From positions 16,668 through 80,667 of the IMG/VR virus record IMGVR_UViG_3300042509_001467: a stretch of DNA of 64,000 bases; one strand, given 5' to 3'. Source of the stretch: a virus. The position numbers and the translations under genes are program-made. The notes beneath the pieces are model-generated. The model had not been told where the DNA came from. It did no database searches and saw only the letters and a list, made by a program, of their open reading frames with translations. Shown piece by piece: positions 984 through 47,610 of this stretch (the first letter of the stretch is position 1; every line of letters starts with the position of its first letter).

Positions 984-1472
984 TTACTCGTCGGTGGTCG
1001 GTTGCATACTAGACTCTGGAAAGTTCAGGTACGCAAATGATTTGTGTAGCTCAATCGCTTTGGCGTCGTACACTCTAGCCGCTTCTTCGGCGGTGTCGTA
1101 TACTCCAAGATATTGCTTCTTATAATCAACCATGATTACTGATTGGAATTTTCCGCTCCCCACTTGGGACACTCCGCGAAATCCAGATTTGGATTGCACG
1201 GTTCGGTGTCGCTTCCTGCAATTCTCAGCGTTAGTGCAATTCTGCAAGTTTGCAACCCGATTGTCCAACTTGTCGCCGTTGATATGGTCAGTCTGCAATC
1301 CTTCCGGGGTCATGTTGATAACGCGGTGCATCATGATCCCGAACCCTGGCTTTACCATGCGATAGGCGTAACCCTTGCCAGTAAGCATCCAAGAGTATCG
1401 AGCCAACGGCGCGTACCACTCGTCGTCCACCGTCACGACTAAATCTGAATTGCTGAGTTTGATATGCTTCAT
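984..1472 (-). CDS. HNH endonuclease with C-terminal AP2 DNA-binding domain
   Basis: MHRVI..DHINGDKLDNRVANL..EN (HNH_3 type) followed by SGFRGVS..YLGVYDTAEEAARVYD..LNFP (AP2). Confidence 0.92.
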   Translation of the reverse strand: MKHIKLSNSDLVVTVDDEWYAPLARYSWMLTGKGYAYRMVKPGFGIMMHRVINMTPEGLQTDHINGDKLDNRVANLQNCTNAENCRKRHRTVQSKSGFRGVSQVGSGKFQSVIMVDYKKQYLGVYDTAEEAARVYDAKAIELHKSFAYLNFPESSMQPTTDE

Positions 1473-1474
1473 GG

Positions 1475-1882
1475 TTAGTCCTCCTGGAAAGGATCGTATT
1501 CCTGATCCTGGGCTTTGGCGCGTGGCGCAGCCGCCGCCTTGCTAGGTGCGCCTTCTCCATCTTTCGGTCGGTCTAGCGATTGCACCGAGTCAGCGACAAT
1601 CTCAACGACCTCGCGCTCTGATCCATCCTTCGCCGTGAACTTGCGTGTGGATAGCCGTCCATCAACCGCGACCAGGCGACCCTTACCGACGTACTGGTTC
1701 ACGAACTCGGCGGTCTTCTCCCATGCGGTTACGTTGAAGAAGTCCGCATCTGGTGAACCGTCTTGCGGCTTGAATTTCTTCGTGACGGCGACGTTGAAAC
1801 TCACCACGCTCTTGCCAGTTGCCACTACTCTCAATTCTGGGTCACGGGTTAAGCGACCTACGATTACTACTCTGTTTACCAT
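1475..1882 (-). CDS. ssb: Single-stranded DNA-binding protein
   Basis: NRVVIVGRLTRDPE, GRLVAVDGRL, acidic DPF tail. Start placed at MVNR with GAAGGA RBS. Confidence 0.95.
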   Translation of the reverse strand: MVNRVVIVGRLTRDPELRVVATGKSVVSFNVAVTKKFKPQDGSPDADFFNVTAWEKTAEFVNQYVGKGRLVAVDGRLSTRKFTAKDGSEREVVEIVADSVQSLDRPKDGEGAPSKAAAAPRAKAQDQEYDPFQED

Positions 1883-1977
1883 GCTTATTTGTATCCTTCG
1901 GTTGCCCGATGTAAGTATCTTACCACGTTTTTTCAAATTGTGGGAGTTTCTTATAAAAATTGTGGTAAATTGTTTTC

Positions 1978-2250
1978 ATGCCGAAAAATAGAATCCTAGA
2001 AGCATTTATCGTGAACCCGCTTGAGCCGCGTGATACGCCACTGAACCCTGCCATGTCGGTTCGATCCATCCTATTGTATGCCCTGGAGCGAAACTTCGTT
2101 GGCGAGCTTCATATCAAGTTTGCCACACGTTCAGCAGCCAGCTACACCAGAAAGATGCTGATCGGCGTTGAAGAGTTCAAAGGTTTAGAATTTTGGGGGA
2201 CGAATGAAACTCTTTGCGTCCGAAGACGGTATAATAATATCGGCACTTAG
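1978..2250 (+). CDS. Hypothetical protein, divergently transcribed, probably leaderless (possible regulator)
   Basis: Only + strand ORF in the replication block; TGG-TAAATT extended -10 ends 6 nt before ATG; followed by a terminator. Confidence 0.6.
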   Translation: MPKNRILEAFIVNPLEPRDTPLNPAMSVRSILLYALERNFVGELHIKFATRSAASYTRKMLIGVEEFKGLEFWGTNETLCVRRRYNNIGT

Positions 2251-2289
2251 ATTTTTCACCACCAGAAACCAACAACAGCTAGTACCTTG

Positions 2290-2320
2290 ACCCTCGATCT
2301 TCGGATCGGGGGTATTTTTT
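2290..2320 (+). terminator. Intrinsic terminator
   Basis: ACCCTCGATC-TTCG-GATCGGGGGT then ATTTTTT (cUUCGg loop). Confidence 0.85.
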
Positions 2321-2334
2321 GTGGTTCAGGAGGC

Positions 2335-2364
2335 AAAAGGAAACCCCGGTGGATAAAGCCGGGG
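2335..2364 (-). terminator. Intrinsic terminator (minus strand)
   Basis: CCCCGG-N9-CCGGGG followed by UUUCCUUUU on the minus strand. Confidence 0.75.
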
Positions 2365-2393
2365 CTGTTATTTAGGATAGACCGCGATGAACG
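2335..2393 (-). ncRNA. Candidate ~58 nt small RNA carrying the anti-RBS sequence GUCUAUCCU
   Basis: Extended -10 TGC-TATACT at 2407-2399, short non-coding body, terminator. Confidence 0.45.
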
Positions 2394-2409
2394 GTTTGAG
2401 TATAGCACA

Positions 2410-3855
2410 CTAATTTAGTTCTAGGTATGGGTCTAGCCAAAATTCATGCCCTTCTCGCATAAGTTCTGGTCGGTTCATCGTATCTTTGATCGTCTCCTTG
2501 CCGTAACCCGCGCCTTTGAGCGCGTTCACGATCACGTCACGGTGTACTCTCGCCCCTGTTGGCAAGCTATAGAAGAGGCTCTTGACTATATCCCACGGCT
2601 TTGCCCTATGATCCGCGCCGTGGAGCCATGCCAGCCGTCCAAGGCTAATCTCATGCCCGTCAATGTCAATCTTGTCTGAGAGAATCTCAAAGCTGATTGG
2701 TTTGGATTGTTTGCCGACGTTACACTTGATATGCGCGAGGCTCACGATCTTGCTGCTTGAATCGTTCTCAACCTGGACTAAGGTTAGTGCTGATCTTGCA
2801 ACGTTGAACATCTCCACCGATCCGTAGGGTATCGCGCTAGATGCGTTGGTTAGTCCTGCCTTGCGGCTTTGTGCGGTCGCCTTAGCGACGTGACCTGCTC
2901 CTACCATTGTGCAACCGTGGCGGTGCAAGACCTGAGCCATGCCATTCATGGCGGTTCGTACTGCGATGTCGGTCTGTGCGCCCCCTGCTTGGACTGCCTT
3001 GGCTACAAACTCCCAGAGCGGGTCGAAGTAGCAGAACTTGATCCTCATGTCGCCTATGAACTGGTCGCAATCTTTGATGCCCTTTGGCGTAAAGCCCTCA
3101 AACCATCCAGAGGTCACGGCGACCGTTGCCGGGTCGCCTCCATGAGCAATTAAGCTCGGCTTAATACGTGACTCGGGGCTATCTTCGTTGCTAATCCACC
3201 AGCAATTCATTGGCTCGGCTATTGGTCTGCCTGGAAAGGGGATACCTGCCGAAAGGCAAGCTATCCAGTGCGAGAGTAAGGTCGTCTTACCAGATTCTCC
3301 CTCTGCGCTGAGTAGGGTGATCGCATTCTCGGGTACGTAGTTTGCAACCAGGAAGTTCTGGGGCTTGGCTACGATCTTGTCAGCGTATACGAATGGAATT
3401 GCTTTGCGGGCGTTCGCATTAGCGGTAGCCTCTACATTCTTTGCCCCCTCTGTGACAACCCTAAGACTATCCTTAGTCTCAAAACTCGGGTTAATCAGCG
3501 AGTCAAGCACCTGGTGTCCGAACTCGTCAATACCCCTGCGAGTTGCCTTGTCTTTGACAATCCCGATGTAAGAGGGTAGGTTTTCGGTGCTGACTACGGA
3601 CTCGGCGCGTAGCAATAGGCTCGGGGTGCCACCAGTTTGCTCGTACAGCCCCTTCGCCATGAGCCTCGCCTTCATCACTACCATGTCCACAACGACGCCC
3701 TCGGCGTCTGCCTCAGCGAAGATGTCAAAGTACCATTGGTGCGCCCTCACAAAGAAGTCGGTGGAGGTTAGTTCTTTGAGCGCGGTCTTTGCCGCGCTAG
3801 GCGAGAGCATCATGCACCCAAGTACACACATCTCAGCTTCTTCGGAGTAAATCAA
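2410..3855 (-). CDS. Replicative helicase-like protein: DnaB N-terminal domain fused to an AAA_25/RepA-type RecA-fold ATPase
   Basis: EEAEMCVLGCMMLS..DFF..H N-terminus; Walker A AEGESGKTT; ISNEDS; FDPL; HVAK; GS..MFNVARS. Confidence 0.8.
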   Translation of the reverse strand: MIYSEEAEMCVLGCMMLSPSAAKTALKELTSTDFFVRAHQWYFDIFAEADAEGVVVDMVVMKARLMAKGLYEQTGGTPSLLLRAESVVSTENLPSYIGIVKDKATRRGIDEFGHQVLDSLINPSFETKDSLRVVTEGAKNVEATANANARKAIPFVYADKIVAKPQNFLVANYVPENAITLLSAEGESGKTTLLSHWIACLSAGIPFPGRPIAEPMNCWWISNEDSPESRIKPSLIAHGGDPATVAVTSGWFEGFTPKGIKDCDQFIGDMRIKFCYFDPLWEFVAKAVQAGGAQTDIAVRTAMNGMAQVLHRHGCTMVGAGHVAKATAQSRKAGLTNASSAIPYGSVEMFNVARSALTLVQVENDSSSKIVSLAHIKCNVGKQSKPISFEILSDKIDIDGHEISLGRLAWLHGADHRAKPWDIVKSLFYSLPTGARVHRDVIVNALKGAGYGKETIKDTMNRPELMREGHEFWLDPYLELN

Positions 3856-5627
3856 CGTCCCGCCTTCTTGTTTTCTAGTAGAGATATGAGTTGGCTTGCC
3901 TCGCCCTTGGTCAGCTTTGCAAGTATGCCCTCGTCCACTTCTTTGAATGATCTAATGTACTTGATCTGGGCGGGGCTTGGGGATTCTTTGCGCCATTTCT
4001 GAGCGCGTTTGACTAGCCCGACACAATCAGCCCATCTTGCCTTGATCGTCGCCTCCGCCCTGCCAATAGCCTCGTCCACATCCCTGCCAGCAATAAACTC
4101 CTGGCTATAATCTTTGCTCTCCATGCGTAAATGCCATTGCCCCGTCGCATCCTCTCGGAGCGTTGCCGATCTGCCATTGCCGCATGAGAGGTGCATCATC
4201 TGAACATCTGCGCTTAGATTGATCCACGAGAGACTTGGATTTCCGATCACTTGGTCAGCTACCCTTAGCTCGTCTAAGATTGAAACCTTTTGCAAGGCGT
4301 CGGTCAGAGTAGACATATCTAACTCGCGGTGCATCAGCACCGCTAATGCCTCCTTGCTTATGTCATCCAGAATCAAGAGTGCATCCGCGGTCTTCTTACC
4401 TCTAAGGTCTAGCTTGGGTGGCAACCCTACGATCCCGGCGACGGTCGGCGTCTCTTGCTTCACGTCCTCGCCCTCTTCGTCCACAATCTCGATCACGATA
4501 CACTCAGGTTTGCGGCTATTGCCGATCCTCTGCAAGCGTGTCTTGATATGTTCGCGTGTTTCTAGCCCATCAATGCAACCTGGCTCGGTTCTTAGACCTC
4601 GCCCTACCATCTGGGTATAGAGCGCAAAGCTCTTGGTTGGTCTTAAAATCAGGACGCACTCACAATTTGGCAGGTCTACACCCTCGGTTGCAATCTCCAC
4701 GTTGATCAGAACCTTGACGCGGTTCTCACGAAAGCCCTGCATGACCGCCCTTCGCTCGTCCTTGTGCATCTTGCCATGAACCATCTCAGCGGGTACGCCT
4801 TTAAGCTGAAAGCACTCGGTGACTGCCATAGCGTGTTTGATGTCGCAACAGAAGACGATTGTTTGCTTGCCGTTTGCAACGTCAGCCCATGTATCATAGG
4901 CGAGAATGTTCCTCATGTTGACGTTAATCGCCTCTGAGAGTTGGCTAATGTCGTAGTCGCCCATCAGGGTGCGAACCTTGCGTAAGTCAACGCTTGACTT
5001 GCGGCGATACCCTGCGATGTCGCATAGCCACCCCTCTTTGATCGCGTCGGCTAGGGTCTTGGAGTAGCTGACGACTTGGTATGGGGTTTGATCGTGTCCA
5101 AACAGGGCGCGGTTGTCCATCCTATGCGGCGTTGCCGTGACGCCTATGCTCTGGGTAGAACCGTCTAGGCATCCAGCTTTAAGATAAACCTCTTGGTATG
5201 ACCTGGCTGCGGATCGGTGCGCCTCGTCTGTCCAGACCACGCTTGGAGCGAACCGCTCAACAATGTTAGAGTCTGCCCTGCCTACGCTTTGAACGCTGGC
5301 TACGCATAGGTCAGCACCAAAGTCGCAACGCTCTCCTGCGCCATGCTGGGTGACTTTAACCTCGGGTGCTATGCTTTGTACCCTTGACTTGATTTGCTGG
5401 ATCAGTTCGTCTCTATGGACGATTGCAAGCATCTTGCCATCGTGCTTATGGCGTTGCATCTGCCACGCCATAACGTTGGTTTTGCCTAAGCCTGTGGCTA
5501 GGACTATGAGGCGTCGTTGGAAGCCTTGCTTTCTTGATTTGTCGTCGGCGTCAATCGCCTCTTGTTGATAATATCTAGGGGTCGCCGCCCTCGGTGCCAC
5601 TTCTTCGCCAAACAGTCCTGCCATCAT
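3852..5627 (-). CDS. Superfamily II DNA helicase (DEAH, ResIII/Irc3-like)
   Basis: LATGLGKT, DEAH, TATP, TEGVDLP, QMVGRGLR motifs. Confidence 0.93.
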   Translation of the reverse strand: MMAGLFGEEVAPRAATPRYYQQEAIDADDKSRKQGFQRRLIVLATGLGKTNVMAWQMQRHKHDGKMLAIVHRDELIQQIKSRVQSIAPEVKVTQHGAGERCDFGADLCVASVQSVGRADSNIVERFAPSVVWTDEAHRSAARSYQEVYLKAGCLDGSTQSIGVTATPHRMDNRALFGHDQTPYQVVSYSKTLADAIKEGWLCDIAGYRRKSSVDLRKVRTLMGDYDISQLSEAINVNMRNILAYDTWADVANGKQTIVFCCDIKHAMAVTECFQLKGVPAEMVHGKMHKDERRAVMQGFRENRVKVLINVEIATEGVDLPNCECVLILRPTKSFALYTQMVGRGLRTEPGCIDGLETREHIKTRLQRIGNSRKPECIVIEIVDEEGEDVKQETPTVAGIVGLPPKLDLRGKKTADALLILDDISKEALAVLMHRELDMSTLTDALQKVSILDELRVADQVIGNPSLSWINLSADVQMMHLSCGNGRSATLREDATGQWHLRMESKDYSQEFIAGRDVDEAIGRAEATIKARWADCVGLVKRAQKWRKESPSPAQIKYIRSFKEVDEGILAKLTKGEASQLISLLENKKAGR

Positions 5628-5967
5628 GAATTTCTATCCTTACCGTTCCTTCTTGTTCTCCTGGCACGTATTCGATTGCCGAACCTGAAACGTACTTCAC
5701 GTTATCGTCGGGCAATATCCCTGCATTGACCAGGCTATCCTCCACGATCTTGACCATGTTGCTGAGGTCGCGCCCTTTGTTGACTTTGCCCTCGACTACA
5801 ATCACGATCTTAACCGGGAGTGATGATTTTGGAACGGGGGTAAGGTGCAACTTGAACATCATCGTTGCCTTAGCCCCCCAGTTCCGGTACTCTTCTGATT
5901 TAACTCGCCGCCCGTTCTTGAGTGTGATATTCGCGTGGTTCACGCTCGGGGGCAGCGATAATCTCAC
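5575..5967 (-). CDS. rusA: RusA-family Holliday junction resolvase
   Basis: LPPSVN..RDLSNMVKIVEDSL..GILPDDN. Confidence 0.85.
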   Translation of the reverse strand: MRLSLPPSVNHANITLKNGRRVKSEEYRNWGAKATMMFKLHLTPVPKSSLPVKIVIVVEGKVNKGRDLSNMVKIVEDSLVNAGILPDDNVKYVSGSAIEYVPGEQEGTVRIEIHDGRTVWRRSGTEGGDP

Positions 5968-6611
5968 TTAGGCGCGACGCCCTCAACCAAGTAGCTCATC
6001 ACCTGGTCGCGTGTCTTGCAACCTGCTACCTTTGCCTCGTTAATCAGTGCGTTCGGGGTTGACTTATCGCCAGCTAATTGCTTGATCGCGCCCCATGTCG
6101 CCTTGTCGCCTCCTACCTCTTTGGATAGGAACCAATCGGCTACCGCTTTCGGGTCAAAGGTTGGGAGTGGTGGAGCCTCATGCTCGTCTGAGTCGTCGTC
6201 CTCTAGCCTGATCTTAAACTGCTGGATCATGGCGTACTTGACGCCCTGAGTCCGAGCCTTCTGGATGCACTTGTCATCGGTAGTCATGCACTGACCAGCC
6301 GAGAATACAGAGTGTATTTGCCCTGTCTCCACGCACTCAAAGTCAATCCTTAGCTTGACCATGCAATCGGTACGCTCTTCTGGCGTACCGCTCTTTGACT
6401 TGGTGATCTTGACGTAATCCACGTCAAGAATATGGTTGGTCGAGATGACGCCCTTATCAATCTCTTGTTGCCTGAGAATAGGCTGAACGTCGTACCAGTG
6501 CTGAAATGAGTAAGATACGCCGCCCCCTTCTGCCTTCTTCTTTGCGACTACATCAAAGTCGCGCTCAATCTCCAGCAGCTTCTTTAAAATCCCCGTGGTC
6601 ACGTCCATCAA
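5964..6611 (-). CDS. ERF-family single-strand annealing protein
   Basis: YSF..DV..; DDK.IQKA.T.G.KY...F.I..DD.D motif; homolog of 40842..41522. Confidence 0.75.
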   Translation of the reverse strand: MMDVTTGILKKLLEIERDFDVVAKKKAEGGGVSYSFQHWYDVQPILRQQEIDKGVISTNHILDVDYVKITKSKSGTPEERTDCMVKLRIDFECVETGQIHSVFSAGQCMTTDDKCIQKARTQGVKYAMIQQFKIRLEDDDSDEHEAPPLPTFDPKAVADWFLSKEVGGDKATWGAIKQLAGDKSTPNALINEAKVAGCKTRDQVMSYLVEGVAPK

Positions 6612-6790
6612 TCCTTCTCCTCCACGTAGGTAGCGTTAATGCGTTCCACGCTAATGAATGAGACGTGGTTCTTGCCAAACATGACTTGTGTACCGCGTTC
6701 GGTCGTAAAGTGCCTTAGTTTTGGGTTGTGCGTGGCGACGTAGTTGCCTAGTCGCCTTAATGTTTCTTCAAATGTGTATGTTCTATCCAT
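6608..6790 (-). CDS. Hypothetical protein
   Basis: AGGATAGA RBS, overlaps next gene. Confidence 0.65.
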   Translation of the reverse strand: MDRTYTFEETLRRLGNYVATHNPKLRHFTTERGTQVMFGKNHVSFISVERINATYVEEKD

Positions 6791-6801
6791 GTTCTATCCT
6801 C

Positions 6802-7077
6802 TTACGGCCAGGTTCCACCATCAAGTGCCGCCGTTCGCGTTCCTATTTCTAAAATGTCCGCCTCAAGGGTCGTAATATTGCCCTGGAGGGTCGCAACGTC
6901 TGCCTCTAGCGCGGCAATCGTCGTATCCTGATAGTCAATGACCAGGCTTGCATCTGCGGGGTCAACCGCAAAGATCGCATCGTCAGCCGAGCATACTATT
7001 TTACCGTCAACGAACCTCTCAATGCGATACCTAGTGGCACGATCTGAGCCAACGAAAATCCAATCTCCGACGATCAT
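6802..7077 (-). CDS. Hypothetical protein with C-terminal coiled coil
   Basis: Start at MIVG overlapping the upstream stop; heptads IAALEADVATLQGNITTLEADI. Confidence 0.6.
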   Translation of the reverse strand: MIVGDWIFVGSDRATRYRIERFVDGKIVCSADDAIFAVDPADASLVIDYQDTTIAALEADVATLQGNITTLEADILEIGTRTAALDGGTWP

Positions 7078-7478
7078 AGACGCCACCCTGCCTCTCGCCA
7101 CTTGGCGATAAGGTTCTGGAAGTGTCCGGCGTCTTTGACTTTGAGCATATCGGTCATGATCCGGTCTAAGAAGTCATGCGACTCTTCTGCCGTTACCCTC
7201 TTCCAGTCCCGCATATTCTCTAGCCCTACTTGCGGTCGAAAGATAAAGCCCGTATGGGTGCATCTCAGGGTGATTGTGAACTGGTCTGGCTTCGGCATCT
7301 TCATCTTGATTGCAACCATTTCGACCCCGGCAACCTCAAAAGACTCCATGACCGAGACGGGTATGACCTTAGCCGTGTCCTCCATCCAGTGCAGGTCGCT
7401 CACTCTTGGAACGGGCAAGTACGTCAAACCGTACTTGCCTAACCCTATCTCACTAATGCCCTTTACGATTCCGTTCAT
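7074..7478 (-). CDS. Hypothetical protein
   Basis: Tightly packed in operon. Confidence 0.65.
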   Translation of the reverse strand: MNGIVKGISEIGLGKYGLTYLPVPRVSDLHWMEDTAKVIPVSVMESFEVAGVEMVAIKMKMPKPDQFTITLRCTHTGFIFRPQVGLENMRDWKRVTAEESHDFLDRIMTDMLKVKDAGHFQNLIAKWREAGWRL

Positions 7479-7885
7479 ATTTGCCCCCCGAATGTGTAAT
7501 CCACGTTACCACACTTCTCAGCGATCATTGCTAGTGCTTGCATTAAAACCTGCTCATGCTCTGGCATATCTTTACCTTGTGCGTTATTGACGGTCTTCCA
7601 CCATTCTGAGTACCTTTGATCTATCGCCCTCAGTGCGCGTGGCTCAATCGAGCTTAACCTGCATATCTGGTGCGCTGAGATTCCTAGCCCCTGCGCGAGA
7701 CGGCAAAAGCGGTACTTGAATGGGGTAATGCTACGCCTGGCGCGTCTGCTTGCGGTGTTGTGCAGCTCCCACGGGTACTTCTCGTCGGGGTCATTGTGCG
7801 GGTGGTGGTTTAAGAATTGCTCCCACTCTCCATCATTCATGCTCATGCACAATGCCGTTATGATTTGGTTCGGCATCCCGTTCAT
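7475..7885 (-). CDS. Hypothetical protein (possible HTH)
   Basis: Operon packing; GISAHQICRLSSIEPRAL resembles a helix-turn-helix. Confidence 0.6.
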   Translation of the reverse strand: MNGMPNQIITALCMSMNDGEWEQFLNHHPHNDPDEKYPWELHNTASRRARRSITPFKYRFCRLAQGLGISAHQICRLSSIEPRALRAIDQRYSEWWKTVNNAQGKDMPEHEQVLMQALAMIAEKCGNVDYTFGGQI

Positions 7886-8373
7886 TTTATTCTAAGCACC
7901 TCCGTTTGCTCTCCGAGCTTGACGCCTGGAACGTCCTCACCAGCGGCTAGTGCCGCCTTGATTGCCGTCTTGTCCCAAGTCGGCTCCATCTCCTTCATGT
8001 ACTGGATTGGAATGACCTTTGGGTCTAGAATCTCCAGCGGTGCGGCTCCTGCCTTGCCTACTGTGAGGGTGAAGCGGTTGGTTTGCACCTTTGGTCTATC
8101 TAGTGCGATCATCGCTCCCTTGATCCGCTGCTCCATGAAGTCGGCTAGTTTTTGCACCGCTTTTGCCTTATCTGCAAAGAATTTGGATTCTGCCTTGAAC
8201 TTCTCGGCGTCGCTCTCGGCGTTTCGCATGACGTAAACGCACCCTTCGAGCTTGGTTTCCAGGTCGCCCTCCATGCCCGCCAGGGTGTCGTCGAACGTTT
8301 GCTGGTCAATGTCGCCAGCTTCCAGCATGGCGACCAGTTGTAGATGTTGCTCTGTTATTTCGTATAGGTTCAT
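7882..8373 (-). CDS. Siphovirus Gp157-family protein
   Basis: MNLYEIT..DTL...EGDLETKLEG..; DKTAIKAALAAGEDVPGVKL..LRIK. Confidence 0.88.
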   Translation of the reverse strand: MNLYEITEQHLQLVAMLEAGDIDQQTFDDTLAGMEGDLETKLEGCVYVMRNAESDAEKFKAESKFFADKAKAVQKLADFMEQRIKGAMIALDRPKVQTNRFTLTVGKAGAAPLEILDPKVIPIQYMKEMEPTWDKTAIKAALAAGEDVPGVKLGEQTEVLRIK

Positions 8374-8726
8374 AGTGCCTCCTCCTTTATTTTAAGTCCT
8401 TTTTCTATCCTCTTAGCGTTGTATGACGCTAGGCGCGTCCTTGCCTCGTCAATTCCTGCTCTTAGTGCCTCTTGCTCAGTCAAAAATAACCCGTGGCTAC
8501 GTGCGATCTTTTCTGCCTCGACTTCGCTTGTGCTTGCTCCAAACATGGTGCTTGCCCCCAGGTTGATTACAAACGCCCAGTTTGCGTTTGATCTCTTATG
8601 TATTGCGGTGCAATGCGACTTCTCCACTACGACGAAGAAGTGTCCAACTTTTGCAGCGTGGTGCTTGCGGTACTCCTTCTTGGTTGTGGTTCTGAATGTA
8701 AATCCTTCAATTGCTTGTGTTTTCAT
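8370..8726 (-). CDS. Hypothetical protein
   Basis: Operon packing. Confidence 0.6.
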   Translation of the reverse strand: MKTQAIEGFTFRTTTKKEYRKHHAAKVGHFFVVVEKSHCTAIHKRSNANWAFVINLGASTMFGASTSEVEAEKIARSHGLFLTEQEALRAGIDEARTRLASYNAKRIEKGLKIKEEAL

Positions 8727-8869
8727 AGTTCATGTTCTCCGATGTATCGTAGAGTCTCCCCGGTTTCCCGGGGTTCTCTTAGGTATTGCAGGGTTGCTGT
8801 GATCGTGCCGCAAATTACTGCGAAGAGTGCGACCAGTACGATCAGGTCTGTCATTTTTTGGTTTTTCAT
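8723..8869 (-). CDS. Small membrane protein (48 aa, not in ORF track)
   Basis: MKNQKMTDLIVLVALFAVICGTITATLQYL...; fills the gap with 4-nt overlaps at both ends. Confidence 0.6.
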   Translation of the reverse strand: MKNQKMTDLIVLVALFAVICGTITATLQYLREPRETGETLRYIGEHEL

Positions 8870-9237
8870 GGTTGGGTTTTCTCCGGTTTGTATAGTCCCA
8901 TAACATAGTTATATTCATCATCGCTGACTGGGATATCTTGCTCACTCATATTGTCTAGCCCAAGACATAGGATTGATTGAATCTCTTGCATCACCTCTGG
9001 CGGCAGCTTGCCGACATTCTCACCTTCTAACCTGATTAGAACATTGTCGCCTAACCCAGTCTCATCATGCGGCATATCCCAGTACCCATTAAGGTAGTAA
9101 TCGTTAGGCTCAAGGCAATACACCCGCACTCCTGCAGTAATTGCGTCCTGCTCTTCTTCGTCTGATGTAAAGCAGAAGTTCTCGCACTCCTTTTCTTCAT
9201 GCAGGTACTTGTAGTCGTCAACGTCGTATATTTTCAT
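8866..9237 (-). CDS. Acidic hypothetical early protein
   Basis: Operon packing. Confidence 0.65.
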   Translation of the reverse strand: MKIYDVDDYKYLHEEKECENFCFTSDEEEQDAITAGVRVYCLEPNDYYLNGYWDMPHDETGLGDNVLIRLEGENVGKLPPEVMQEIQSILCLGLDNMSEQDIPVSDDEYNYVMGLYKPEKTQP

Positions 9238-9650
9238 GCTGGTTCTCCGTTTTGAAACATCTTAAACTCTGCCCCATGGTCCAGGTAATCGAGGCTCTTA
9301 GATAAATCCTCCCTGATTTCTGCGTCGTAGTCGCGCTTAGATTTTACGTGAGATTCAAGGTATGCCCCTTCTGATTTCTCATCAAAATCATATCTAGCGC
9401 AGGTCTTGAGTGCCATTTCAAAGCTTCCGAGATGCCCGATATGAACGTCAATTACCTCATGTCCGCACTCACGGGTGTAGATGTCTTTTAGCTCAAACGC
9501 TTGGCACTTTCCGTCATCGTTTCGCGATATGTAGTACTTGCCAAACATTAGACAATCGTCTTTAATCTCAACCTGGGTCGTCTTAATACCCATAAGTGCC
9601 GTGTACCTTTTTGCGGTGTTGATCTCTTCGTTAGTAAATGTTTTGTTCAT
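9234..9650 (-). CDS. Hypothetical early protein
   Basis: AGGATAGA RBS. Confidence 0.7.
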   Translation of the reverse strand: MNKTFTNEEINTAKRYTALMGIKTTQVEIKDDCLMFGKYYISRNDDGKCQAFELKDIYTRECGHEVIDVHIGHLGSFEMALKTCARYDFDEKSEGAYLESHVKSKRDYDAEIREDLSKSLDYLDHGAEFKMFQNGEPA

Positions 9651-9663
9651 TGTTTTCTATCCT

Positions 9664-9731
9664 GCTATGAGTTCGGCATAGCTCCCTAGAATCTTTGGAC
9701 TCTAGGCAACCCTGCCGGGGTTGCTTTACTC
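9664..9731 (-). ncRNA. Unassigned structured RNA (three hairpins with potential pseudoknots)
   Basis: GCAACCC/GGGUUGC, CUAGAGUC/GAUUCUAG and GCUAUG/CAUAGC fill the intergenic gap up to the RBS. Confidence 0.6.
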
Positions 9732-9962
9732 TTACTCTACCGGGGCGCACCCTGGCTTATACATCTTTTGCCACGGTTCATGGCGCATAAACCTTTCGGC
9801 GTGGTCAATGTTCATGCCCTTAAACATCCGTTTCTCTTGGTGCATCCAGATTTTGACTAGCCCAGTGCTTCGGTCTACGAATTCCAGCCACCACCCGCCA
9901 TGTCGTTTGCCCATCCACTCAAGCTGCAATACGTGAGTATCATTCTGCTCAATGATCGTCAT
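9732..9962 (-). CDS. Hypothetical early protein
   Basis: Operon packing. Confidence 0.6.
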   Translation of the reverse strand: MTIIEQNDTHVLQLEWMGKRHGGWWLEFVDRSTGLVKIWMHQEKRMFKGMNIDHAERFMRHEPWQKMYKPGCAPVE

Positions 9963-10156
9963 AATTTATTCACCATCGCGCTAGGGTCTAGCCACGGGTT
10001 GATACCATCCGCATCCGTGACTCTAAACCTTTCGAATCCTTGATCTATCGCCCATTTCTTAGCCTCTTCGAACCGTGACCCATCGCCGACGGTGATAACA
10101 TCTTCTGCCCATTCCGGGTCACCCTTTCGGTGTCCCCATAATACGAATTCTCTCAT
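9959..10156 (-). CDS. Hypothetical early protein
   Basis: Operon packing; AGGAGG upstream. Confidence 0.65.
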   Translation of the reverse strand: MREFVLWGHRKGDPEWAEDVITVGDGSRFEEAKKWAIDQGFERFRVTDADGINPWLDPSAMVNKL

Positions 10157-10329
10157 AGTTCCATTGCCTCCTGCTCTCTCGATTGTTGCACCAGGTCTGC
10201 CGCATCGAAGAGGGGTTGAAATTGGCGCGTCATCTCTGCCGCCATTTGGTCATTGATTGCCCTCTTTGCGTCTGCCGGGTTTAACCCGGCATATACGGTC
10301 TTTTGGTTTATGATAATCTCAATTCTCAT
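10153..10329 (-). CDS. Hypothetical early protein (58 aa, not in ORF track)
   Basis: MRIEIIINQKTVYAGLNPADAK...; 4-nt overlaps on both sides. Confidence 0.55.
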   Translation of the reverse strand: MRIEIIINQKTVYAGLNPADAKRAINDQMAAEMTRQFQPLFDAADLVQQSREQEAMEL

Positions 10330-10523
10330 GCCTTCGCCTCATCAGCATTGAATAGCTTCACGATCTGGCACTCTGCACCAGGTGCGAAGCACCTTTGCCC
10401 TAAGCTGCATCCGGTAATCGGACGCCATAGCTCCATCATTGACCATTGGCTAGAGTCCCAATCCGATCTAACGCGCCACGCGTGATTCTTATACTTCACG
10501 ATTGAGCCGCTTGGAATAATCAC
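10326..10523 (-). CDS. Hypothetical early protein
   Basis: GTG start with AGGAGG RBS. Confidence 0.6.
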   Translation of the reverse strand: MIIPSGSIVKYKNHAWRVRSDWDSSQWSMMELWRPITGCSLGQRCFAPGAECQIVKLFNADEAKA

Positions 10524-10618
10524 GCTCTGAACCTCCTGGCGATTCTTCGAAGTTTGAGGGTGCTGATCTTGGTCCTGTTAACGTGACCTTTGCCTTGATA
10601 TGTTTTGATTGTATCCAT
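10520..10618 (-). CDS. 32-aa basic Arg-rich peptide directly downstream of the twister ribozyme
   Basis: MDTIKTYQGKGHVNRTKISTLKLRRIARRFRA; AGGATAG RBS; stop overlaps the next start (GTGA). Confidence 0.55.
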   Translation of the reverse strand: MDTIKTYQGKGHVNRTKISTLKLRRIARRFRA

Positions 10619-10626
10619 GTGTCTAT

Positions 10627-10676
10627 CCTCACTCTCTATTTTCACGGGCTTGTGACCGTCCATGGCTAGATTAAGG
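10627..10676 (-). ncRNA. Twister self-cleaving ribozyme, type P1
   Basis: Minus-strand RNA CCU-UAA-UCUA-GCC-AUGG-ACGG-UCACAAGC-CCGU-GAAAA-UAGA-GAGUG-AGG. P1 CCU/AGG, P2 UCUA/UAGA, P4 ACGG/CCGU; loop CAC pairs with GUG and GC pairs with GC for the two pseudoknots; invariant UAA and GAG in L1. Predicted cut U10673/A10672. Confidence 0.93.
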
Positions 10677-10702
10677 GTGCCAGGTGCTAACCTGGCATAG
10701 TG

Positions 10703-11119
10703 TTACTTGATCTTTGAGAGTGTCCAGCCATCCTCAGTCTTGCCATTGAATGTCTGCTCTAGAGTCCAGCCCAATTCTTTAAGCGCGTTGATCACTGATG
10801 ATTCACCCGCTGCCGAGGTTCGCGCGATCTTGTTATGCTCATCGCTTCCATGAGTGTAAATCCATCTTAGAAAATCTGCCATGACTGCCGAGGTCTTGCA
10901 ATACCCATACCCGCTGGCATACGCTACCTTTTCGCCTCGATGGTTACTGATTCGCGGGCATGACCCCCAGGTACTAGACTTGTTGTAGCTGATTGCGAAT
11001 CCGGCGCGTCCAGTGCCGTACTCTGAGTTGATTTGATTTACTAACACTTGCGCGTATTCTTGTGCGCGTAATTCAAGCGTCGTTAGTTTAGGTGTTTTGG
11101 TTGTTGTTGTATCGCTCAT
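10703..11119 (-). CDS. Conserved early protein (homolog of 47666..48052)
   Basis: S.TWG..P, ASG.GY.K.SA, L.W, EH.KI..AG, AL.E.G..LE shared with the phage B gene. Confidence 0.8.
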   Translation of the reverse strand: MSDTTTTKTPKLTTLELRAQEYAQVLVNQINSEYGTGRAGFAISYNKSSTWGSCPRISNHRGEKVAYASGYGYCKTSAVMADFLRWIYTHGSDEHNKIARTSAAGESSVINALKELGWTLEQTFNGKTEDGWTLSKIK

Positions 11120-11155
11120 TTGGTTTATCCTTAGTCTTGATTGCTGGTCATTGCG

Positions 11156-11410
11156 TTAGTTTTGTACGCTCATGTGGTCACTGTAGCTGCTCAGATACTC
11201 CTGCAGGTACTCAGGGTCATTATCACGCTTTGCGGCCGCTATCTCTGAGCGAATCTCTTCCATGTCCCCGGCATCGTCTATAATCACTGAGCGTTTACCC
11301 TGGCTGATTTGGTAGTAATGGCATCCGAACCGGTTTACTAGCTTAACTGTATATTTGGTCTTAGGTCGCGCCACTGTAAAGAGTGAACCGTTCAGGTATT
11401 CCGGTGTCAT
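11156..11410 (-). CDS. Hypothetical early protein
   Basis: Start at MTPEY overlapping the upstream stop. Confidence 0.55.
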   Translation of the reverse strand: MTPEYLNGSLFTVARPKTKYTVKLVNRFGCHYYQISQGKRSVIIDDAGDMEEIRSEIAAAKRDNDPEYLQEYLSSYSDHMSVQN

Positions 11411-11853
11411 ACAACACCCCACATCTCTTGCCCGTCCACGTACAATGTCATATTGCCATGATCTGAGACCACCAGGTAAGTACCCGATGGATCGTCTGGC
11501 AATTCGTCGCACTTGATCAAATCGCCATCGTAAATGTCATGTTCTAGACTCTCTTGGCTGATCCAATACCCGAAGTCTGAACCATCTCCCTCATGCGCTC
11601 CAAAGTACGCGTATGGTGGTGCAATAGCGTTCATCTCATCGAAGAGAATGTCATTCAGGTACTCGTCCAGTAGGTCATCGTCCCCAACCTCCTCATCAGT
11701 TAGGCGATTCAATGCATCCTGAATCTCTTCGGGTAGCGTGAAGGATGAATTGTACTCTTTGAGTACGTCCACGAAGTCAGGAATGAGATCGGCTGCGATG
11801 TGCGTACCATGTGAGATGGTGCCGAGTGGTGCGAATTGTTTTGATCGTGTCAT
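11407..11853 (-). CDS. Acidic conserved phage early protein
   Basis: GTISHGT..DLIP.F; APPY.YFGAHEGDGSDFGYW; VSDHGN; GGAGGA RBS. Confidence 0.75.
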   Translation of the reverse strand: MTRSKQFAPLGTISHGTHIAADLIPDFVDVLKEYNSSFTLPEEIQDALNRLTDEEVGDDDLLDEYLNDILFDEMNAIAPPYAYFGAHEGDGSDFGYWISQESLEHDIYDGDLIKCDELPDDPSGTYLVVSDHGNMTLYVDGQEMWGVV

Positions 11854-12062
11854 TAAAATAGTCCTCCAAATTGGCAATGCTGCCGCATCTCTTTTTCGCT
11901 CATGGGCTCGCAAGTCATGCGCTCGATTGTTTCTAGGCATGATTGGTCCGACTTTTGGGACCAGAAACGCTTTAGATCGTCTAGGTCCTCTTGGTAAAAC
12001 CTGCTGCCGGGAGTGAGATGCTTCGAAGCTAGTTTAAAAGCTTTTTGCTGTAATCGTGTCAT
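11853..12062 (-). CDS. First gene of early operon, hypothetical
   Basis: GGATA RBS; preceded by a 5' hairpin and promoter. Confidence 0.6.
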   Translation of the reverse strand: MTRLQQKAFKLASKHLTPGSRFYQEDLDDLKRFWSQKSDQSCLETIERMTCEPMSEKEMRQHCQFGGLF

Positions 12063-38326: not shown

Positions 38327-38613
38327 TCGGATACCTCTGCTGGCTTTTGGGTCTGGAGCGTCGCAAGGTGGAATTCTTGGCATATTGCATGGCAACTTTC
38401 GCGCAAAGATTCATCCCAGTTAGTCCCAGCGATCATCTGTGAAGGCTTATGACAATCCGGGTCTTGCACTCGCATGATGTCCTTCTCAACTAAGTCAAGT
38501 ACTTTCTTTGCGGATTCTTCGGTATCCTCCACAATCCGCGTTGGGTAGCTTTGACGCAAGAATCTAAGGGCTAGATTCCGGTCGCAAGTTGCAAATTGAA
38601 ATTCATTTTTCAT
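38323..38613 (-). CDS. Hypothetical protein
   Basis: Operon packing; within the repeat. Confidence 0.7.
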   Translation of the reverse strand: MKNEFQFATCDRNLALRFLRQSYPTRIVEDTEESAKKVLDLVEKDIMRVQDPDCHKPSQMIAGTNWDESLRESCHAICQEFHLATLQTQKPAEVSE

Positions 38614-38732
38614 CGTCTAAAAATTCCTCTGATCCGTTGCCAGATCGTTTGTCGTCGTAGCTCACCGTAGGCGTTGCCGCCGTAAATGTCCGGGCGGTCG
38701 CTCATTCGTGGTCCGTTGTACTTCTTGGCGGC
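38338..38732. repeat. Direct repeat copy 2
   Basis: Matches 1-395 at offset 38,337. Confidence 0.95.
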
Positions 38733-38801
38733 GGTGATGGCGTCCTCTAGCCCGGATTCTCTTTGGGCTTTTGCGCTTGCTTGCGATAATGTCTCCTTCA
38801 T
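38610..38801 (-). CDS. Hypothetical protein spanning the repeat boundary
   Basis: Shares its C-terminal 40 aa with 273..455. Confidence 0.75.
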   Translation of the reverse strand: MKETLSQASAKAQRESGLEDAITAAKKYNGPRMSDRPDIYGGNAYGELRRQTIWQRIRGIFRR

Positions 38802-44018: not shown

Positions 44019-45321
44019 CGAATACATTCCCGTACACTCGAAAGAAGCGGAGATGTGCGTTCTTGGCTCAATGATGCTATCTGAGAAGGCAATCTCTGAG
44101 GTGGCGCAACTGATCACTGCTGAGGACTTTTACCAACCAAGTCATAAGCTAGTGTTTCAGGCGATCCAGCAGCTTGCCGCTAAGGGTTCAGCCGCCGACC
44201 TGGTAACCGTCCGAAACTCTCTGCAAGAATCGGGCAGCCTCGAAATGTGCGGTGGCGTCCCGTACTTGGTCGAGGTCGCCAACTCCACACCGAGCGCACT
44301 TAACGCGAGAGAGTACGCGGAGATTGTCAAGGAAAAATCTTTGATGCGAAGCCTTGAATCGGCGGGACAAGAGATAATCAGGCTATCGCGTGATCCAGAG
44401 CTATCTATCAGCCAGCGGGTAGACAAGTCGCTTGACCATATCGTAGCCGTGGCGAACAACAAGCCGAGCGCGGTAAGCAGGTCATCAATCCACGACGTTA
44501 GCACGAGGGTACTTGCGGACGTTGACGAGATGTTTGACACGGGCATACCTAAGCAAGGCATAAGCAGCACGTTCAGGGGCATTGACTACTACACGGGCGG
44601 AATATACCCGGGCGAATACTGGATTATCGGAGCCAAGCCCGGAATGGGTAAAACCGCCATGCTCATCTCTATGGCAATCGCCCTGGCTAAGTCTGGCGTT
44701 CGCGTGATGATCTTTAGTCTTGAAATGACAGACGAGCAACTTACCATCAGAGCCATTAGCCAAAGATCGGGAGTACCCGTAAACGTCATCAGGAAGCCCA
44801 TTAAGACCGATGCGGAGTACAACCGGGTGAGAGACGCGGCAGAAGAGTTGAGAACGCTTCCTATCGAAATTATTGATGCAAGCGGAATGACCATCGAAGG
44901 CGTCACGGCGCTAGTGAAAGGTTTGCACCAGAACGAACTTCCGGGCGTGGCGATGATTGATTATCTCCAGCTACTTAAAAGCACGAAGCAATTCAGGGGG
45001 GAAACTGAACTTATGTCGCACGTTAGCTCATCAGTGAGAGAACTTGCTAAGGCTACGCAAGTACCCTTTATCGGTCTGGCACAACTTAGGCGCGATGATG
45101 CAAAGGCTCCAGAGAAACGACCAGGGCTTTACGACCTGAAAAACACCAGCCAATTTGAGCAGGATGGACACGTTATCGGGTTTCTCCACCGGGACAAGGA
45201 GTACCAAAACGCAACCGTGCCTATGGAGTTTATTATTGCCAAGAATCGAAACGGTGAGGTCGGAACCGTCACTCTCGGGTTTATTAAGCAAACAACTCAG
45301 GTGGTGAATCCTGCCGTGTGA
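44011..45321 (+). CDS. dnaB: Replicative DNA helicase DnaB
   Basis: GAKPGMGKT, FSLEM, IDYLQL, AQL.R, DL..T..FEQD, KNRNG. Confidence 0.95.
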   Translation: MFDEYIPVHSKEAEMCVLGSMMLSEKAISEVAQLITAEDFYQPSHKLVFQAIQQLAAKGSAADLVTVRNSLQESGSLEMCGGVPYLVEVANSTPSALNAREYAEIVKEKSLMRSLESAGQEIIRLSRDPELSISQRVDKSLDHIVAVANNKPSAVSRSSIHDVSTRVLADVDEMFDTGIPKQGISSTFRGIDYYTGGIYPGEYWIIGAKPGMGKTAMLISMAIALAKSGVRVMIFSLEMTDEQLTIRAISQRSGVPVNVIRKPIKTDAEYNRVRDAAEELRTLPIEIIDASGMTIEGVTALVKGLHQNELPGVAMIDYLQLLKSTKQFRGETELMSHVSSSVRELAKATQVPFIGLAQLRRDDAKAPEKRPGLYDLKNTSQFEQDGHVIGFLHRDKEYQNATVPMEFIIAKNRNGEVGTVTLGFIKQTTQVVNPAV

Positions 45322-45376
45322 TAACGAATAACGAACCCACTGAAACTATTTTCACCCGGATATTGTATATTTAGAT

Positions 45377-45691
45377 ATGGAAAGAATTTTACCTAAACAA
45401 GTTTACATAAACTTTGAAGCGACTCGGAAAATGGCTGGGAAGGGCAGGGACTCTGGATACCTTACTGGCATAGCAATTTATTTCGGAATGAGGTTTGTTG
45501 CAACGGTCCCAGAAATCGCTTCAAAGCTAAAGGTAACCCCTAGGACAGTTTATGGGTTTCTCAACAGGAATGATGGTGGAGCCATCACGGTAAACCGTAG
45601 AGCTGCACAAGACGGCGGGACGTTGCCGTCCGAGTACGTTCTGAATACAGACTTTATTAGATTGGACATGGAAGAAGATGGACAAGGTTAA
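45377..45691 (+). CDS. HTH DNA-binding protein, probably leaderless
   Basis: TVPEIASKLKVTPRTVYGFL; TATATT 5 nt before ATG. Confidence 0.7.
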   Translation: MERILPKQVYINFEATRKMAGKGRDSGYLTGIAIYFGMRFVATVPEIASKLKVTPRTVYGFLNRNDGGAITVNRRAAQDGGTLPSEYVLNTDFIRLDMEEDGQG

Positions 45692-46547
45692 ATCCGAAAT
45701 GGTGGCACTGATTCCGTTTTGGGTGCTTCAGGTTTGCGAAAACAACCAGTATCTTGCGGTTTACTCAGCCTTAAAGTCATTCACCAGCGCAGATCAGCAG
45801 GCGTTCCCGTCTCGGGCTAGGATTGCGAAACGCGCCAGGGTGAGCGTCGTTACTGTGGCTAGGGCGTTGAAGTTTTTTCAGGAGGTTGGAGCCGTCGTGG
45901 TCGAACACCAGTACCACAACAATATGCAGACCGTTTCGCTTTACACGATGCTCATAGACCGACCCAAGAAGTACGAAAATCTGCGCTTCAAAGACCAGCA
46001 AGACGGTGTATCTCCAGAGACACAGCGGTGTATCTCCAGTGATCTACCCGGTATATCTCCCCAGATACACAGAACTAAATCCATAGAACTAGAACCAATT
46101 AAAGAAAAAGAAAAAATACTAAAAGAAAAAGAACCCACGCCAAAAGCAGAGGTCGTTGAAGAGTTTGTTGCCAAGGTAAGAGCCATCTACCCCAAGCGGA
46201 GCGGGAACATGGGATGGAAGTATTTCACTCAAAGAGCCGCGACTCATTTCAAGACTGCCAAGAGTAAAGATGATTTTCTCTTAGCGGTTGCGAACTACAA
46301 GAAAGAGTGCGCCGAGCTTGGAAGGGGTCCAGATTTTATAAAGCAGCCAGCCTCATTCATAGCCGCACACTACGACTACATCACCTCACCCCAGGAGCAA
46401 GAATCCGTCTTTGATGGGGTTAAGTTTGAATCAGGGTGGGGCGATACTCCAAGTAAGCAAGTCAAAATTGCGCCCTGGTCGGAAATGAAGTCTCAGCCAT
46501 CAAGAAAGGTACTCACGATGGATGATGTAGACACGGCGCGGGAATAG
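45678..46547 (+). CDS. Replication initiator (lambda-O/DnaD-like, N-terminal winged HTH)
   Basis: VY.AL.SF....AFPS...IA.....S..TV.RAL..F...G; internal iterons; C-terminal YPKR...FIKQP.SF. Confidence 0.8.
   Translation: MDKVKSEMVALIPFWVLQVCENNQYLAVYSALKSFTSADQQAFPSRARIAKRARVSVVTVARALKFFQEVGAVVVEHQYHNNMQTVSLYTMLIDRPKKYENLRFKDQQDGVSPETQRCISSDLPGISPQIHRTKSIELEPIKEKEKILKEKEPTPKAEVVEEFVAKVRAIYPKRSGNMGWKYFTQRAATHFKTAKSKDDFLLAVANYKKECAELGRGPDFIKQPASFIAAHYDYITSPQEQESVFDGVKFESGWGDTPSKQVKIAPWSEMKSQPSRKVLTMDDVDTARE
46004..46135. repeat. Putative replication origin: three iterons plus A-rich tract
   Basis: CGGTGTATCTCCAG at 46004 and 46026, CGGTATATCTCC at 46049, then an A-rich run ~46100-46135. Confidence 0.75.
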
Positions 46548-46644
46548 AATTGCCCCGTTTTGCCGTCTACGCGCTGTTTCTAGGCGTTCTGATGCCCTTC
46601 CCGTCTCTGAACACGGGTGGCAAAGTAGAGGCGGCTTAAACGCG

Positions 46645-46685
46645 AAAAACAAAACCCCGCCCTAATTGGGCGAGGTGTTTCGTTG
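46645..46685. terminator. Bidirectional terminator at convergence
   Basis: CGCCC-TAATT-GGGCG with A-tract on the left and T-rich sequence on the right. Confidence 0.6.
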
Positions 46686-46805
46686 TTTGGCTAAGAAGCG
46701 GGATATTCTAGCAGCTTCCTCGGGGGTGCAAACCCACCAGTATTGTTTCGATCCTGGTGGGTGTTTGCGAGGGCGTCCTCGTGGTTTCTTTGGCGGTTCG
46801 GTCAT
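46662..46805 (-). CDS. 47-aa AT-hook peptide (not in ORF track)
   Basis: MTEPPKKPRGRPRKHPPG...; start overlaps the upstream stop. Confidence 0.6.
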   Translation of the reverse strand: MTEPPKKPRGRPRKHPPGSKQYWWVCTPEEAARISRFLAKQRNTSPN

Positions 46806-47038
46806 GGATTCCATTCCAAGATTCCAGGGTTTTCACCTGTGTCTACGTCACCAGGCACTACTCCTGCAATTAAGCTCAATGGAATTTCTACTGGGGTTCG
46901 ATTTGCGCCGCAGTTTCTGACGATTGCGACTAAATCATCTTGCCCATCACTGTGAGGGATTGAGAACGAATGAGCTTTGTACCATGTCGTTTCGTCTTTC
47001 CATGTGATGCCTACTAGAATGTTTTGTGGTTGGTTCAT
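46802..47038 (-). CDS. Hypothetical early protein
   Basis: GGAGG RBS before MNQPQ. Confidence 0.6.
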   Translation of the reverse strand: MNQPQNILVGITWKDETTWYKAHSFSIPHSDGQDDLVAIVRNCGANRTPVEIPLSLIAGVVPGDVDTGENPGILEWNP

Positions 47039-47241
47039 TGATTTCCTCCGTAAACGTAAGCCGCCTTGCACTCCATGAATTGAGTTTGGGTTACCGATGA
47101 TCCACACTCTTCACGAATGGCGTTCACGTCGGCAGATCGTCCAGCACCAGGGATGCTGAAATAGTGGCAGAGAATGAAGATGAATGCAGAGGCTAGAAAG
47201 ATGCCTAGCGTGGCGAGTAGAGTTAGTTCGATTTTATTCAT
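47035..47241 (-). CDS. Small membrane protein
   Basis: N-terminal TM helix; AGGTAA RBS. Confidence 0.65.
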   Translation of the reverse strand: MNKIELTLLATLGIFLASAFIFILCHYFSIPGAGRSADVNAIREECGSSVTQTQFMECKAAYVYGGNQ

Positions 47242-47253
47242 TTGGTTTTACCT

Positions 47254-47288
47254 AACCTCTTTTCGAGGTCGAGGGAGCGAACCCCCTC
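47254..47288 (-). ncRNA. Tandem-hairpin RNA element before RBS
   Basis: GAGGGGG-UUCG-CUCCCUC directly followed by GACCUC-GAAAA-GAGGUU. Confidence 0.5.
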
Positions 47289-47298
47289 CGCACGGTTT

Positions 47299-47598: not shown

Positions 47599-47610
47599 TT
47601 GGTTTTACCT

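Follow-up and report, generated by a model that had tools for sequence, protein, structure and literature searches.

The DNA analysed here, a stretch of 64,000 nucleotides that we call the window, comes from an 80.7-kb IMG/VR viral contig found in lake-water metagenomes and is that of an uncultured lake-water phage, whose terminase is at best about 25% identical to those of isolated phages. A minus-strand operon of small ORFs spans positions 984-12062; almost all of these ORFs are without a known family, and a Mu Gam-like protein is one of the products. Most of them overlap by 4 nt (10523/10520, 10329/10326, 10156/10153, 9962/9959, 9237/9234, 8869/8866 and more), and this chain is broken in two places, by an 81-nt gap at 9731-9651, which holds the motif under study, and by a gap at 10702-10619, which holds a twister-like element. 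The motif comprises 61 bases (9724-9664, minus strand) arranged as three adjacent hairpins of 7, 8 and 6 bp (H1, H2 and H3), inside the 81-nt gap that runs from the stop codon of a 76-aa ORF to the ribosome-binding site of the next gene, AGGAUAGA. The features of the locus are listed below, where the relative is a 40-kb phage contig (G001) and the variant is a lineage recovered from lake-water runs.

10626..10677, minus strand: twister-P1-like element, about 900 nt upstream of the motif (52 bits, gathering score 67.2, E 4e-10)
9959..10156, minus strand: 65-aa ORF, first gene of a two-gene cassette that moves with the motif
9732..9962, minus strand: 76-aa ORF of the ORF list, stop codon TAA at 9734-9732, with the motif 3' of the stop in all contexts seen
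9725..9731, minus strand: 5' flank GAGUAAA, AAGCAAA in the relative, so that the pairing GAGU:ACUC exists in the window only
9706..9724, minus strand: H1, GCAACCC/CGGCA/GGGUUGC, 7 bp, identical in the relative, its loop shorter by one C in the variant
9686..9705, minus strand: H2, CUAGAGUC/CAAA/GAUUCUAG, 8 bp including one G-U, a variable stem, with the loop CAGA in relatives
9683..9685, minus strand: linker GGA, the same in every version seen
9664..9682, minus strand: H3, GCUAUG/CCGAACU/CAUAGC, 6 bp, adjoining the ribosome-binding site, identical in the relative, its loop shorter by 1 nt in the variants
9657..9663, minus strand: ribosome-binding site AGGAUAG(A), unpaired in all predicted folds, with the AUG nine bases on, at 9650
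9648..9650, minus strand: start codon ATG of the 138-aa ORF that follows, the homology to each relative stopping at most about 12 nt away

The initial annotation had transcribed this minus-strand RNA exactly, the sequences and coordinates of H1, H2, GGA, H3 and AGGAUAG all being correct, and had rightly placed it between the TAA at 9734-9732 and the ribosome-binding site ahead of the ATG. The 76-aa ORF has no Pfam or PHROG family and counts P0001-P0003 as its relatives; it is linked to the motif in the window, in the relative and in the variant. Neither flanking protein, of 65 or 76 aa, shows a recognisable RNA-binding or other domain in Pfam and PHROG.

The twister-P1-like element falls under the Rfam cut-off because a short loop replaces an optional stem. 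A 7-bp hairpin (10678-10697) stands before it; AGGAUAGA and a 32-aa basic ORF (10618-10520), which overlaps the GTG of the next gene, come after it. The two slots thus share one layout, namely a stop codon, a 7-bp hairpin, an element of 45-52 nt and AGGAUAGA, as had been proposed, and the five genes counted between them are ORFs of 32, 65, 58, 65 and 76 aa. One lake-water contig shares only 10618-10696 with the window, both of its flanks being unlike, and other contigs have the twister replaced, before the same ribosome-binding site, by different letters that by eye form two small hairpins.

The AGGAUAG heptamer also precedes the genes starting at 5627, 6790 and 10618. The longer string AGGATAGA(A), at 5640, 6800, 9663 and 10629 (minus strand), precedes four early-operon start codons, and the window contains 11 copies of AGGATAG where 5.4 would be expected, with a plus-strand copy at 2374-2380. 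Furthermore, two structured intergenic spacers of a second phage, at 47597-47667 and 47240-47300 (minus strand), both end in AGGTAAAACCAAATG, and Rfam gave no match at either of them. A hairpin spacer followed by a standard ribosome-binding site seems, on these sequences, to be a general habit of these phages. As to the second phage, positions 1-409 of the window are repeated at 38338-38746 (99%), and the right part of the window (44326-50148), unlike the left, shares about 90% identity with the 40-kb phage. The 80.7-kb contig has the look of two related phages fused, possibly a chimeric assembly via a common stretch.

Structure and family searches

The 84-nt spacer folds at -28.8 kcal/mol, compared with -16.5 +/- 2.6 kcal/mol for 200 dinucleotide shuffles, an advantage of 12 kcal/mol (z -4.79, 0 of 200 as good), so the dense structure asserted by the initial annotation is borne out. 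The minimum-energy fold is one long imperfect hairpin and not the three hairpins: H2 is lengthened to 9 bp, GGUU pairs with AGCU and CGGCA with UGCCG, and GAGU pairs with ACUC in the window only, which gives a predicted 18 bp with two 1x1 mismatches, the extra pairs including two G-U. This long hairpin comes to -28.4 to -29.0 kcal/mol against about -26.5 kcal/mol for the three hairpins, and in every version of the motif the two folds differ by no more than about 2-3 kcal/mol. In prefix folding, H1 forms first and H2 next, and the rearrangement takes place only after the 5' arm of H3 exists. The alternative fold does not rise above chance, since structure-preserving shuffles, in which base pairs were permuted within stems and letters within loops and the three hairpins were retained, produced a competitor fold that did as well or better against the three-hairpin state in 624 of 3000 cases (21%).

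The complementarity of CGGCA with UGCCG and of GAGU with ACUC had been read as a double pseudoknot or as two alternative folds. It is real, and the minimum-energy fold uses it; the two folds are indeed predicted close in energy, albeit not beyond chance, whereas the double pseudoknot finds no support. The pairing CGGCA:UGCCG shows no covariation and clashes with H3, and GAGU:ACUC is not a conserved contact, as the relative reads AAGC there and, in the variant, part of ACUC is lost with the loop-3 deletion. Because CGGCA:UGCCG takes two nucleotides of the H3 stem and all five of loop 1, the folding models make it an alternative fold rather than a pseudoknot, and full pairing of loop 1 while H1 stands would, from general RNA geometry, be sterically implausible. 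Neither AGGAUAG nor the AUG is paired in the minimum-energy fold, the three-hairpin fold or the folds of the variant, and with the ribosome-binding site free in each predicted fold no expression platform is visible.

No Rfam family matched over 9651-9734 when 9000-11500 (2.5 kb) was searched with lax filters at E<=10, and none was found at the motif when the whole window was searched at E<=1 and at gathering scores. The Rfam 15 models of hammerhead, twister, twister-sister, pistol, hatchet, HDV-like, hairpin, VS, glmS and hovlinc do not match the motif, in agreement with the earlier statement on the first six of these classes. With a covariance model of the motif, no second copy was found in the window's phage (G000) or in the 40-kb phage, and the motif is single-copy in both.

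Several ordinary assignments were considered and rejected. A sense-strand intrinsic terminator is out for want of the U-tract, as the initial annotation had remarked, the bases after H1, H2 and H3 being C, G and A, and the scan of the minus strand gave neither a terminator-like nor a promoter-like site at the motif, which also disposes of a promoter. A coding region is out in view of 1-nt indels in relatives, and the overlapping 39-aa frame is without a start codon in the 40-kb relative. A tRNA or tmRNA was searched for at the motif and rejected. An RNA anti-CRISPR or a mimic of a host repeat, looked for with H1, is not supported: among the 185,579 genomes of GTDB, the H1 19-mer is found once each in 10 unrelated ones, as chance single matches, and at no time in an array or together with the other parts of the motif. 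Canonical terminators do exist in these phages, and the motif is not one on the sense strand: a hairpin with a U-tract at 4010-4048 of the relative's record L002 ends the cassette-bearing operon of that phage and is kept in the window's second phage at about 46650-46690 (minus strand).

Relatives, metagenome variants and the downstream junction

All public collections scanned yielded a single stored relative, the 40-kb phage contig with terminal repeats (L002, L003 and L020, which together are G001). A blastn search of 50,697 phage records, with 8800-10800 and with the 84-nt spacer as queries, returned nothing or chance matches of 21-23 nt. Five DNA patterns run against IMG/VR (the H1 19-mer, the H3 19-mer, a loops-only structure-neutral pattern, an H2-degenerate pattern and H1-arm/N20/H3-arm) returned nothing beyond the known relative, as did protein-guided scans with the 138-aa, 76-aa and 65-aa ORFs. 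Protein alignment and the loops-only pattern, which would miss the deletion variant described below, found none in JGI metagenome contigs, and the H2-degenerate pattern had no match in GTDB genomes.

In the relative, the motif is identical to that of the window at 60 of 61 positions, the sole difference being loop 2, which reads CAGA. The surroundings are less alike: the last 36 nt of the upstream gene agree at 30 of 36 positions, the 5' flank at 8 of 10 (GAGUAAA to AAGCAAA) and the segment from the ribosome-binding site to the ATG at 14 of 16, and the downstream ORF is unrelated. The motif is the best-conserved block of its neighbourhood, flanked by a block of 80-83% on one side and by an unrelated one on the other. 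Further upstream, the 65-aa ORF shares 95% nucleotide identity with the relative. As a whole, window 10186-9648 aligns with L002 2777-3315, while the sequences flanking this block in L002 align with the window at about 47044 and about 46805. Since the 40-kb phage carries the block between sequences found at those two places in the window, the 65-aa ORF, the 76-aa ORF and the motif make up a mobile cassette. A twister is absent from the 40-kb phage, where the best score was 11.5 bits.

The middle of the 76-aa gene (9771-9871, minus strand) has 52% identity to the relative between flanks of 95% and 83%, and one contig of lake-water run X14 joins 9767 to 9871, omitting 103 bases of the ORF; this stretch looks like a mosaic or deleted patch within a tiny gene.

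Logan contigs of four lake-water runs were compared with window 9300-10900. Over the motif, runs X11 and X22 had no cover or window-identical cover only, and one variant lineage was recovered from two runs of different studies, X14 (depth 5.3) and X17 (depth 2.9). The 9.2-kb contig of P0002, one of the relatives of the 76-aa ORF, appears to carry this variant as well. The changes of the variant relative to the window are the following.

Pair 9704-9687: U-A to C-G, compensatory
Pair 9702-9689: G-C to G-U
Pair 9700-9691: G-U to G-C
Pair 9703-9688: A-U to U.U, broken
Loop 2: CAAA to CAGA
Loop 1: CGGCA, with one C gone from the CCCC run
Loop 3: CCGAACU minus one nucleotide, at 9671 in X14 and at 9670 in X17

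H2, with its 20 nt, takes all six listed substitutions of the motif (five in the stem, one in the loop), and the other 41 nt take none; three more differences of the variant contig, outside this list, lie probably at 9653-9662 or 9758-9767. The five stem substitutions touch four pairs, three of which are kept. A simple calculation puts the chance of keeping three of four pairs at about 0.1-0.3 given transition bias, so that the retention of H2 as a helix, seen in one variant lineage, carries modest statistical weight. Both CTAG tetranucleotides of H2 (9686-9705) are lost in the variant while the pairing is mostly retained, a loss that may reflect restriction avoidance. The 1-nt deletions in loops 1 and 3 make the motif non-coding. 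They are neutral on the loop-1:H3 pairing, for which a neighbouring C can substitute. In unconstrained folds and in folds with H1 disallowed, the three-hairpin state of the variant is at least as good as its long hairpin, which has one more mismatch.

The single G-U pair of H2 sits at different positions in the window and in the variant. As these G-U pairs, like the two in the long hairpin, would be A.C mismatches on the other strand, their shifting position is easier to reconcile with an RNA of the transcribed strand than with a palindrome in DNA or with the opposite strand, and a sense-strand RNA is favoured on that ground.

The gene that follows the motif changes from one context to another. 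The variant contigs diverge at 9653 into a third downstream gene (translation MTITRK...), and another X17 contig, with a window-like motif and the CAGA loop, enters a fourth one from 9642 (MNKSRKP...), in addition to MNKTFT... in the window and MQTLRT... in the relative. The same spacer, ribosome-binding site and start codon thus stand before four unrelated genes, the breaks lying at most about 12 nt from the ATG, and the constant partner of the motif is the upstream 76-aa gene. From these contexts, we take the motif to belong to the upstream cassette and not to one particular downstream gene.

Possible functions

What had been put forward as a candidate motif holds as an unassigned, non-coding, structured and conserved sense-strand RNA, linked to a cassette and set at a mosaic junction; the specific claim of a ribozyme or a switch does not. 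The account that we prefer, with a confidence somewhat short of even, is that of a non-catalytic intercistronic spacer for processing and stability, which also marks a mosaic junction. It is the simplest mechanism for an element that leaves the ribosome-binding site free, lacks a sense-strand terminator, fills one of just two breaks in a chain of coupled genes and mirrors the layout of the twister slot. The motif interrupts an otherwise translationally coupled early operon of a lake-water phage and forms the 3' end of a mobile cassette (65-aa and 76-aa genes), giving the standard AGGAUAGA to whichever gene comes next. A host endoribonuclease would cut the polycistronic RNA at the motif, either RNase III acting on the long-hairpin conformer of about 20 positions or a single-strand-specific enzyme acting in the linker. 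H1 and H2 would then shield the new 3' end of the upstream message, and the downstream message would have its 5' end capped by H3, whose place next to the ribosome-binding site would leave that site accessible. Incidentally, this stretch of 60-80 conserved nt could serve as an identity patch for homologous recombination between related phages, which would be why gene content changes exactly at the next start codon. The cleavage, the nuclease and the stabilising effect are what we infer here.

Several points weigh against this spacer, and the covariation seen in H2 comes from one variant lineage. The putative long-hairpin conformer that RNase III would need is not above chance in the shuffled models, and in one variant it is not predicted to be the minimum-energy fold. 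Protective hairpins need pairing and not sequence, and yet H1, GGA and H3 are without substitution while H2 has six in 20 nt. This invariance hints at sequence-specific protein recognition or at tertiary contacts.

For that reason, plain protective hairpins failing to explain the invariance, a binding site for a phage or host protein stays alive as an alternative, although we consider it unlikely. The motif could then act as an operator for translation, as a 3'-UTR site through which the adjacent 76-aa or 65-aa protein regulates its own expression, or as an antitermination RNA of the put/nut type that works on RNA polymerase. Invariant H1, GGA and H3 around a varying but paired H2 is the pattern typical of sequence-specific recognition on either side of a spacer helix, the motif constantly accompanies the same two small ORFs, and H3 adjoins the ribosome-binding site. 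Against such a site, the flanking proteins carry no recognisable RNA-binding domain or other domain, the ribosome-binding site itself is outside the structure, the motif lies deep within operons rather than right after a promoter or before a terminator, and Rfam offers no match.

An element acting at the level of DNA or on the antisense strand is an improbable reading. It could be a dyad-symmetric recombination or operator site, or an opposite-direction terminator made of H1 and a plus-strand T-rich run. The whole motif is quasi-palindromic, its reverse complement weakly matching the motif's own covariance model (12.4 bits), and gene content changes at the edge of the motif in every relative. 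On the opposite strand, H1 with the T-rich complement of the A-rich 5' flank is scored as terminator-like in the relative (L002 3237-3259, its minus strand), but the window's own H1 is terminator-like on neither strand in the same kind of scan, and there are no nearby plus-strand genes or promoters that would need a stop. Furthermore, one copy per genome leaves no intragenomic partner for recombination, and the G-U pairs favour sense RNA stems over the other strand or a DNA cruciform.

There is likewise little probability that the motif is without a function of its own, being a recently exchanged patch that looks conserved only from lack of time. Just three or four closely related lineages are known, the adjacent 65-aa gene is likewise 95% identical, and these phages are patchwork mosaics. 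A z of -4.8 is however unexpected for a neutral spacer, and the motif tops the conservation of its neighbourhood, between the 80-83% block and the unrelated one, is kept before four different genes and shows a compensatory change in H2.

It appears very improbable that the motif represents a new class among the small self-cleaving ribozymes, one that does the twister's job with a cut just before the ribosome-binding site. Equally improbable is the broader form of this reading, in which a new tiny ribozyme class or a protein-independent processing RNA would be interchangeable with the twister as an 'insulator' cassette before any gene. The heuristic behind the initial annotation was reasonable, because bacterial self-cleaving ribozymes cluster mutually and near phage genes, a setting that has been a source of new classes (PMC6765202). 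The layout of the slot does match that of the twister-like element, the motif is conserved without a family match, and its variable stem lies between invariant segments. On the other hand, the base rate is low, 3 of 36 RAGATH motifs having proved to be ribozymes (PMC11061315), and we place the figure under that rate since the 40-kb relative carries the motif without a twister, the loops are variable and a multi-helix junction is absent. Very close relatives differ in three of the four unpaired segments (loop 1 minus 1 nt, loop 2 A>G, loop 3 minus 1 nt), although with few lineages this variation of all three loops is a weak test. The sole candidate tertiary contact has an unconserved 5' helix and no covariation and competes with H3, and in other contigs the twister slot holds letters resembling plain small hairpins. 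With loops that vary and a ribosome-binding site free in every fold, no ribozyme- or switch-specific feature is supported, and the proposal that two ribozymes release a circularisable fragment finds no support outside the window, the motif-bearing relative having no twister.

The least probable reading is a conformational switch (riboswitch, thermometer or kinetic) in which the change between three hairpins and the long hairpin would control the downstream gene: the two folds are about 2-3 kcal/mol apart in all versions and prefix folding goes through H1 and H2 before rearranging upon the 5' arm of H3, but neither fold pairs the ribosome-binding site or the start codon, a terminator is neither formed nor removed, the competitor arises in 21% of structure-preserving shuffles, the four unrelated downstream ORFs offer no consistent regulated function, and 61 nt of three simple hairpins would hold no obvious ligand pocket.

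We regard the motif as an element of a familiar kind, represented here by a new sequence family. Were it a mere processing and stability spacer, it would be one more case of phage punctuation of polycistronic early RNA, in which conserved RNA elements double as crossover points for swaps of small genes, and its interest would be modest and confined to a poorly sampled lineage of lake-water phages. Were it to self-cleave, it would be a new ribozyme class. In either case, a twister slot and a hairpin slot in one operon, with the same layout and the same ribosome-binding site, make a natural setting in which to ask what self-cleavage adds to plain hairpins, and this pairing bears on what bacterial and phage ribozymes are for.

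Comparison with known systems

The R sites of T7-like phages are intercistronic processing hairpins for RNase III, whose cleavage leaves a protective 3' hairpin. The motif resembles them in its predicted imperfect hairpin of about 20 positions with internal mismatches, which is conserved, located between early polycistronic cistrons, devoid of a U-tract and followed by the ribosome-binding site of the next gene. It differs from them in that the sequences are unrelated and in that its long hairpin has three local hairpins as competitors and does not exceed what chance would produce.

Twister-P1 (RF03160) in the same operon shares the slot and the layout with the motif, and both blocks are found in other contigs with unrelated flanks, whereas the motif matches no ribozyme model and is without a junction or a conserved core. 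The RAGATH motifs are structured RNAs near twister- and hammerhead-associated genes (PMC11061315); like them, the motif is a structured RNA of unassigned function near a twister-like element in phage DNA, but it matches no RAGATH entry of Rfam, is found in a few lake-water contigs only and occurs in a relative without a twister.

The PeSLs of T4-type phages combine a strong sigma-70 promoter with a functional terminator and are present in many copies per genome (PMC2839356, PMC4122927), and their cassettes mediate modular shuffling (PMC2839356). As in that case, the motif is a small conserved structured intergenic cassette bordering shuffled small early ORFs, with gene content shifting at its edge; in contrast to it, the motif has neither a promoter-like nor a sense-strand terminator-like site and is single-copy. 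By analogy, the kinds of element that would be nearest to it in function are the RNase III hairpins of T7-like phages and the PeSL cassettes, the motif itself being a member of neither.
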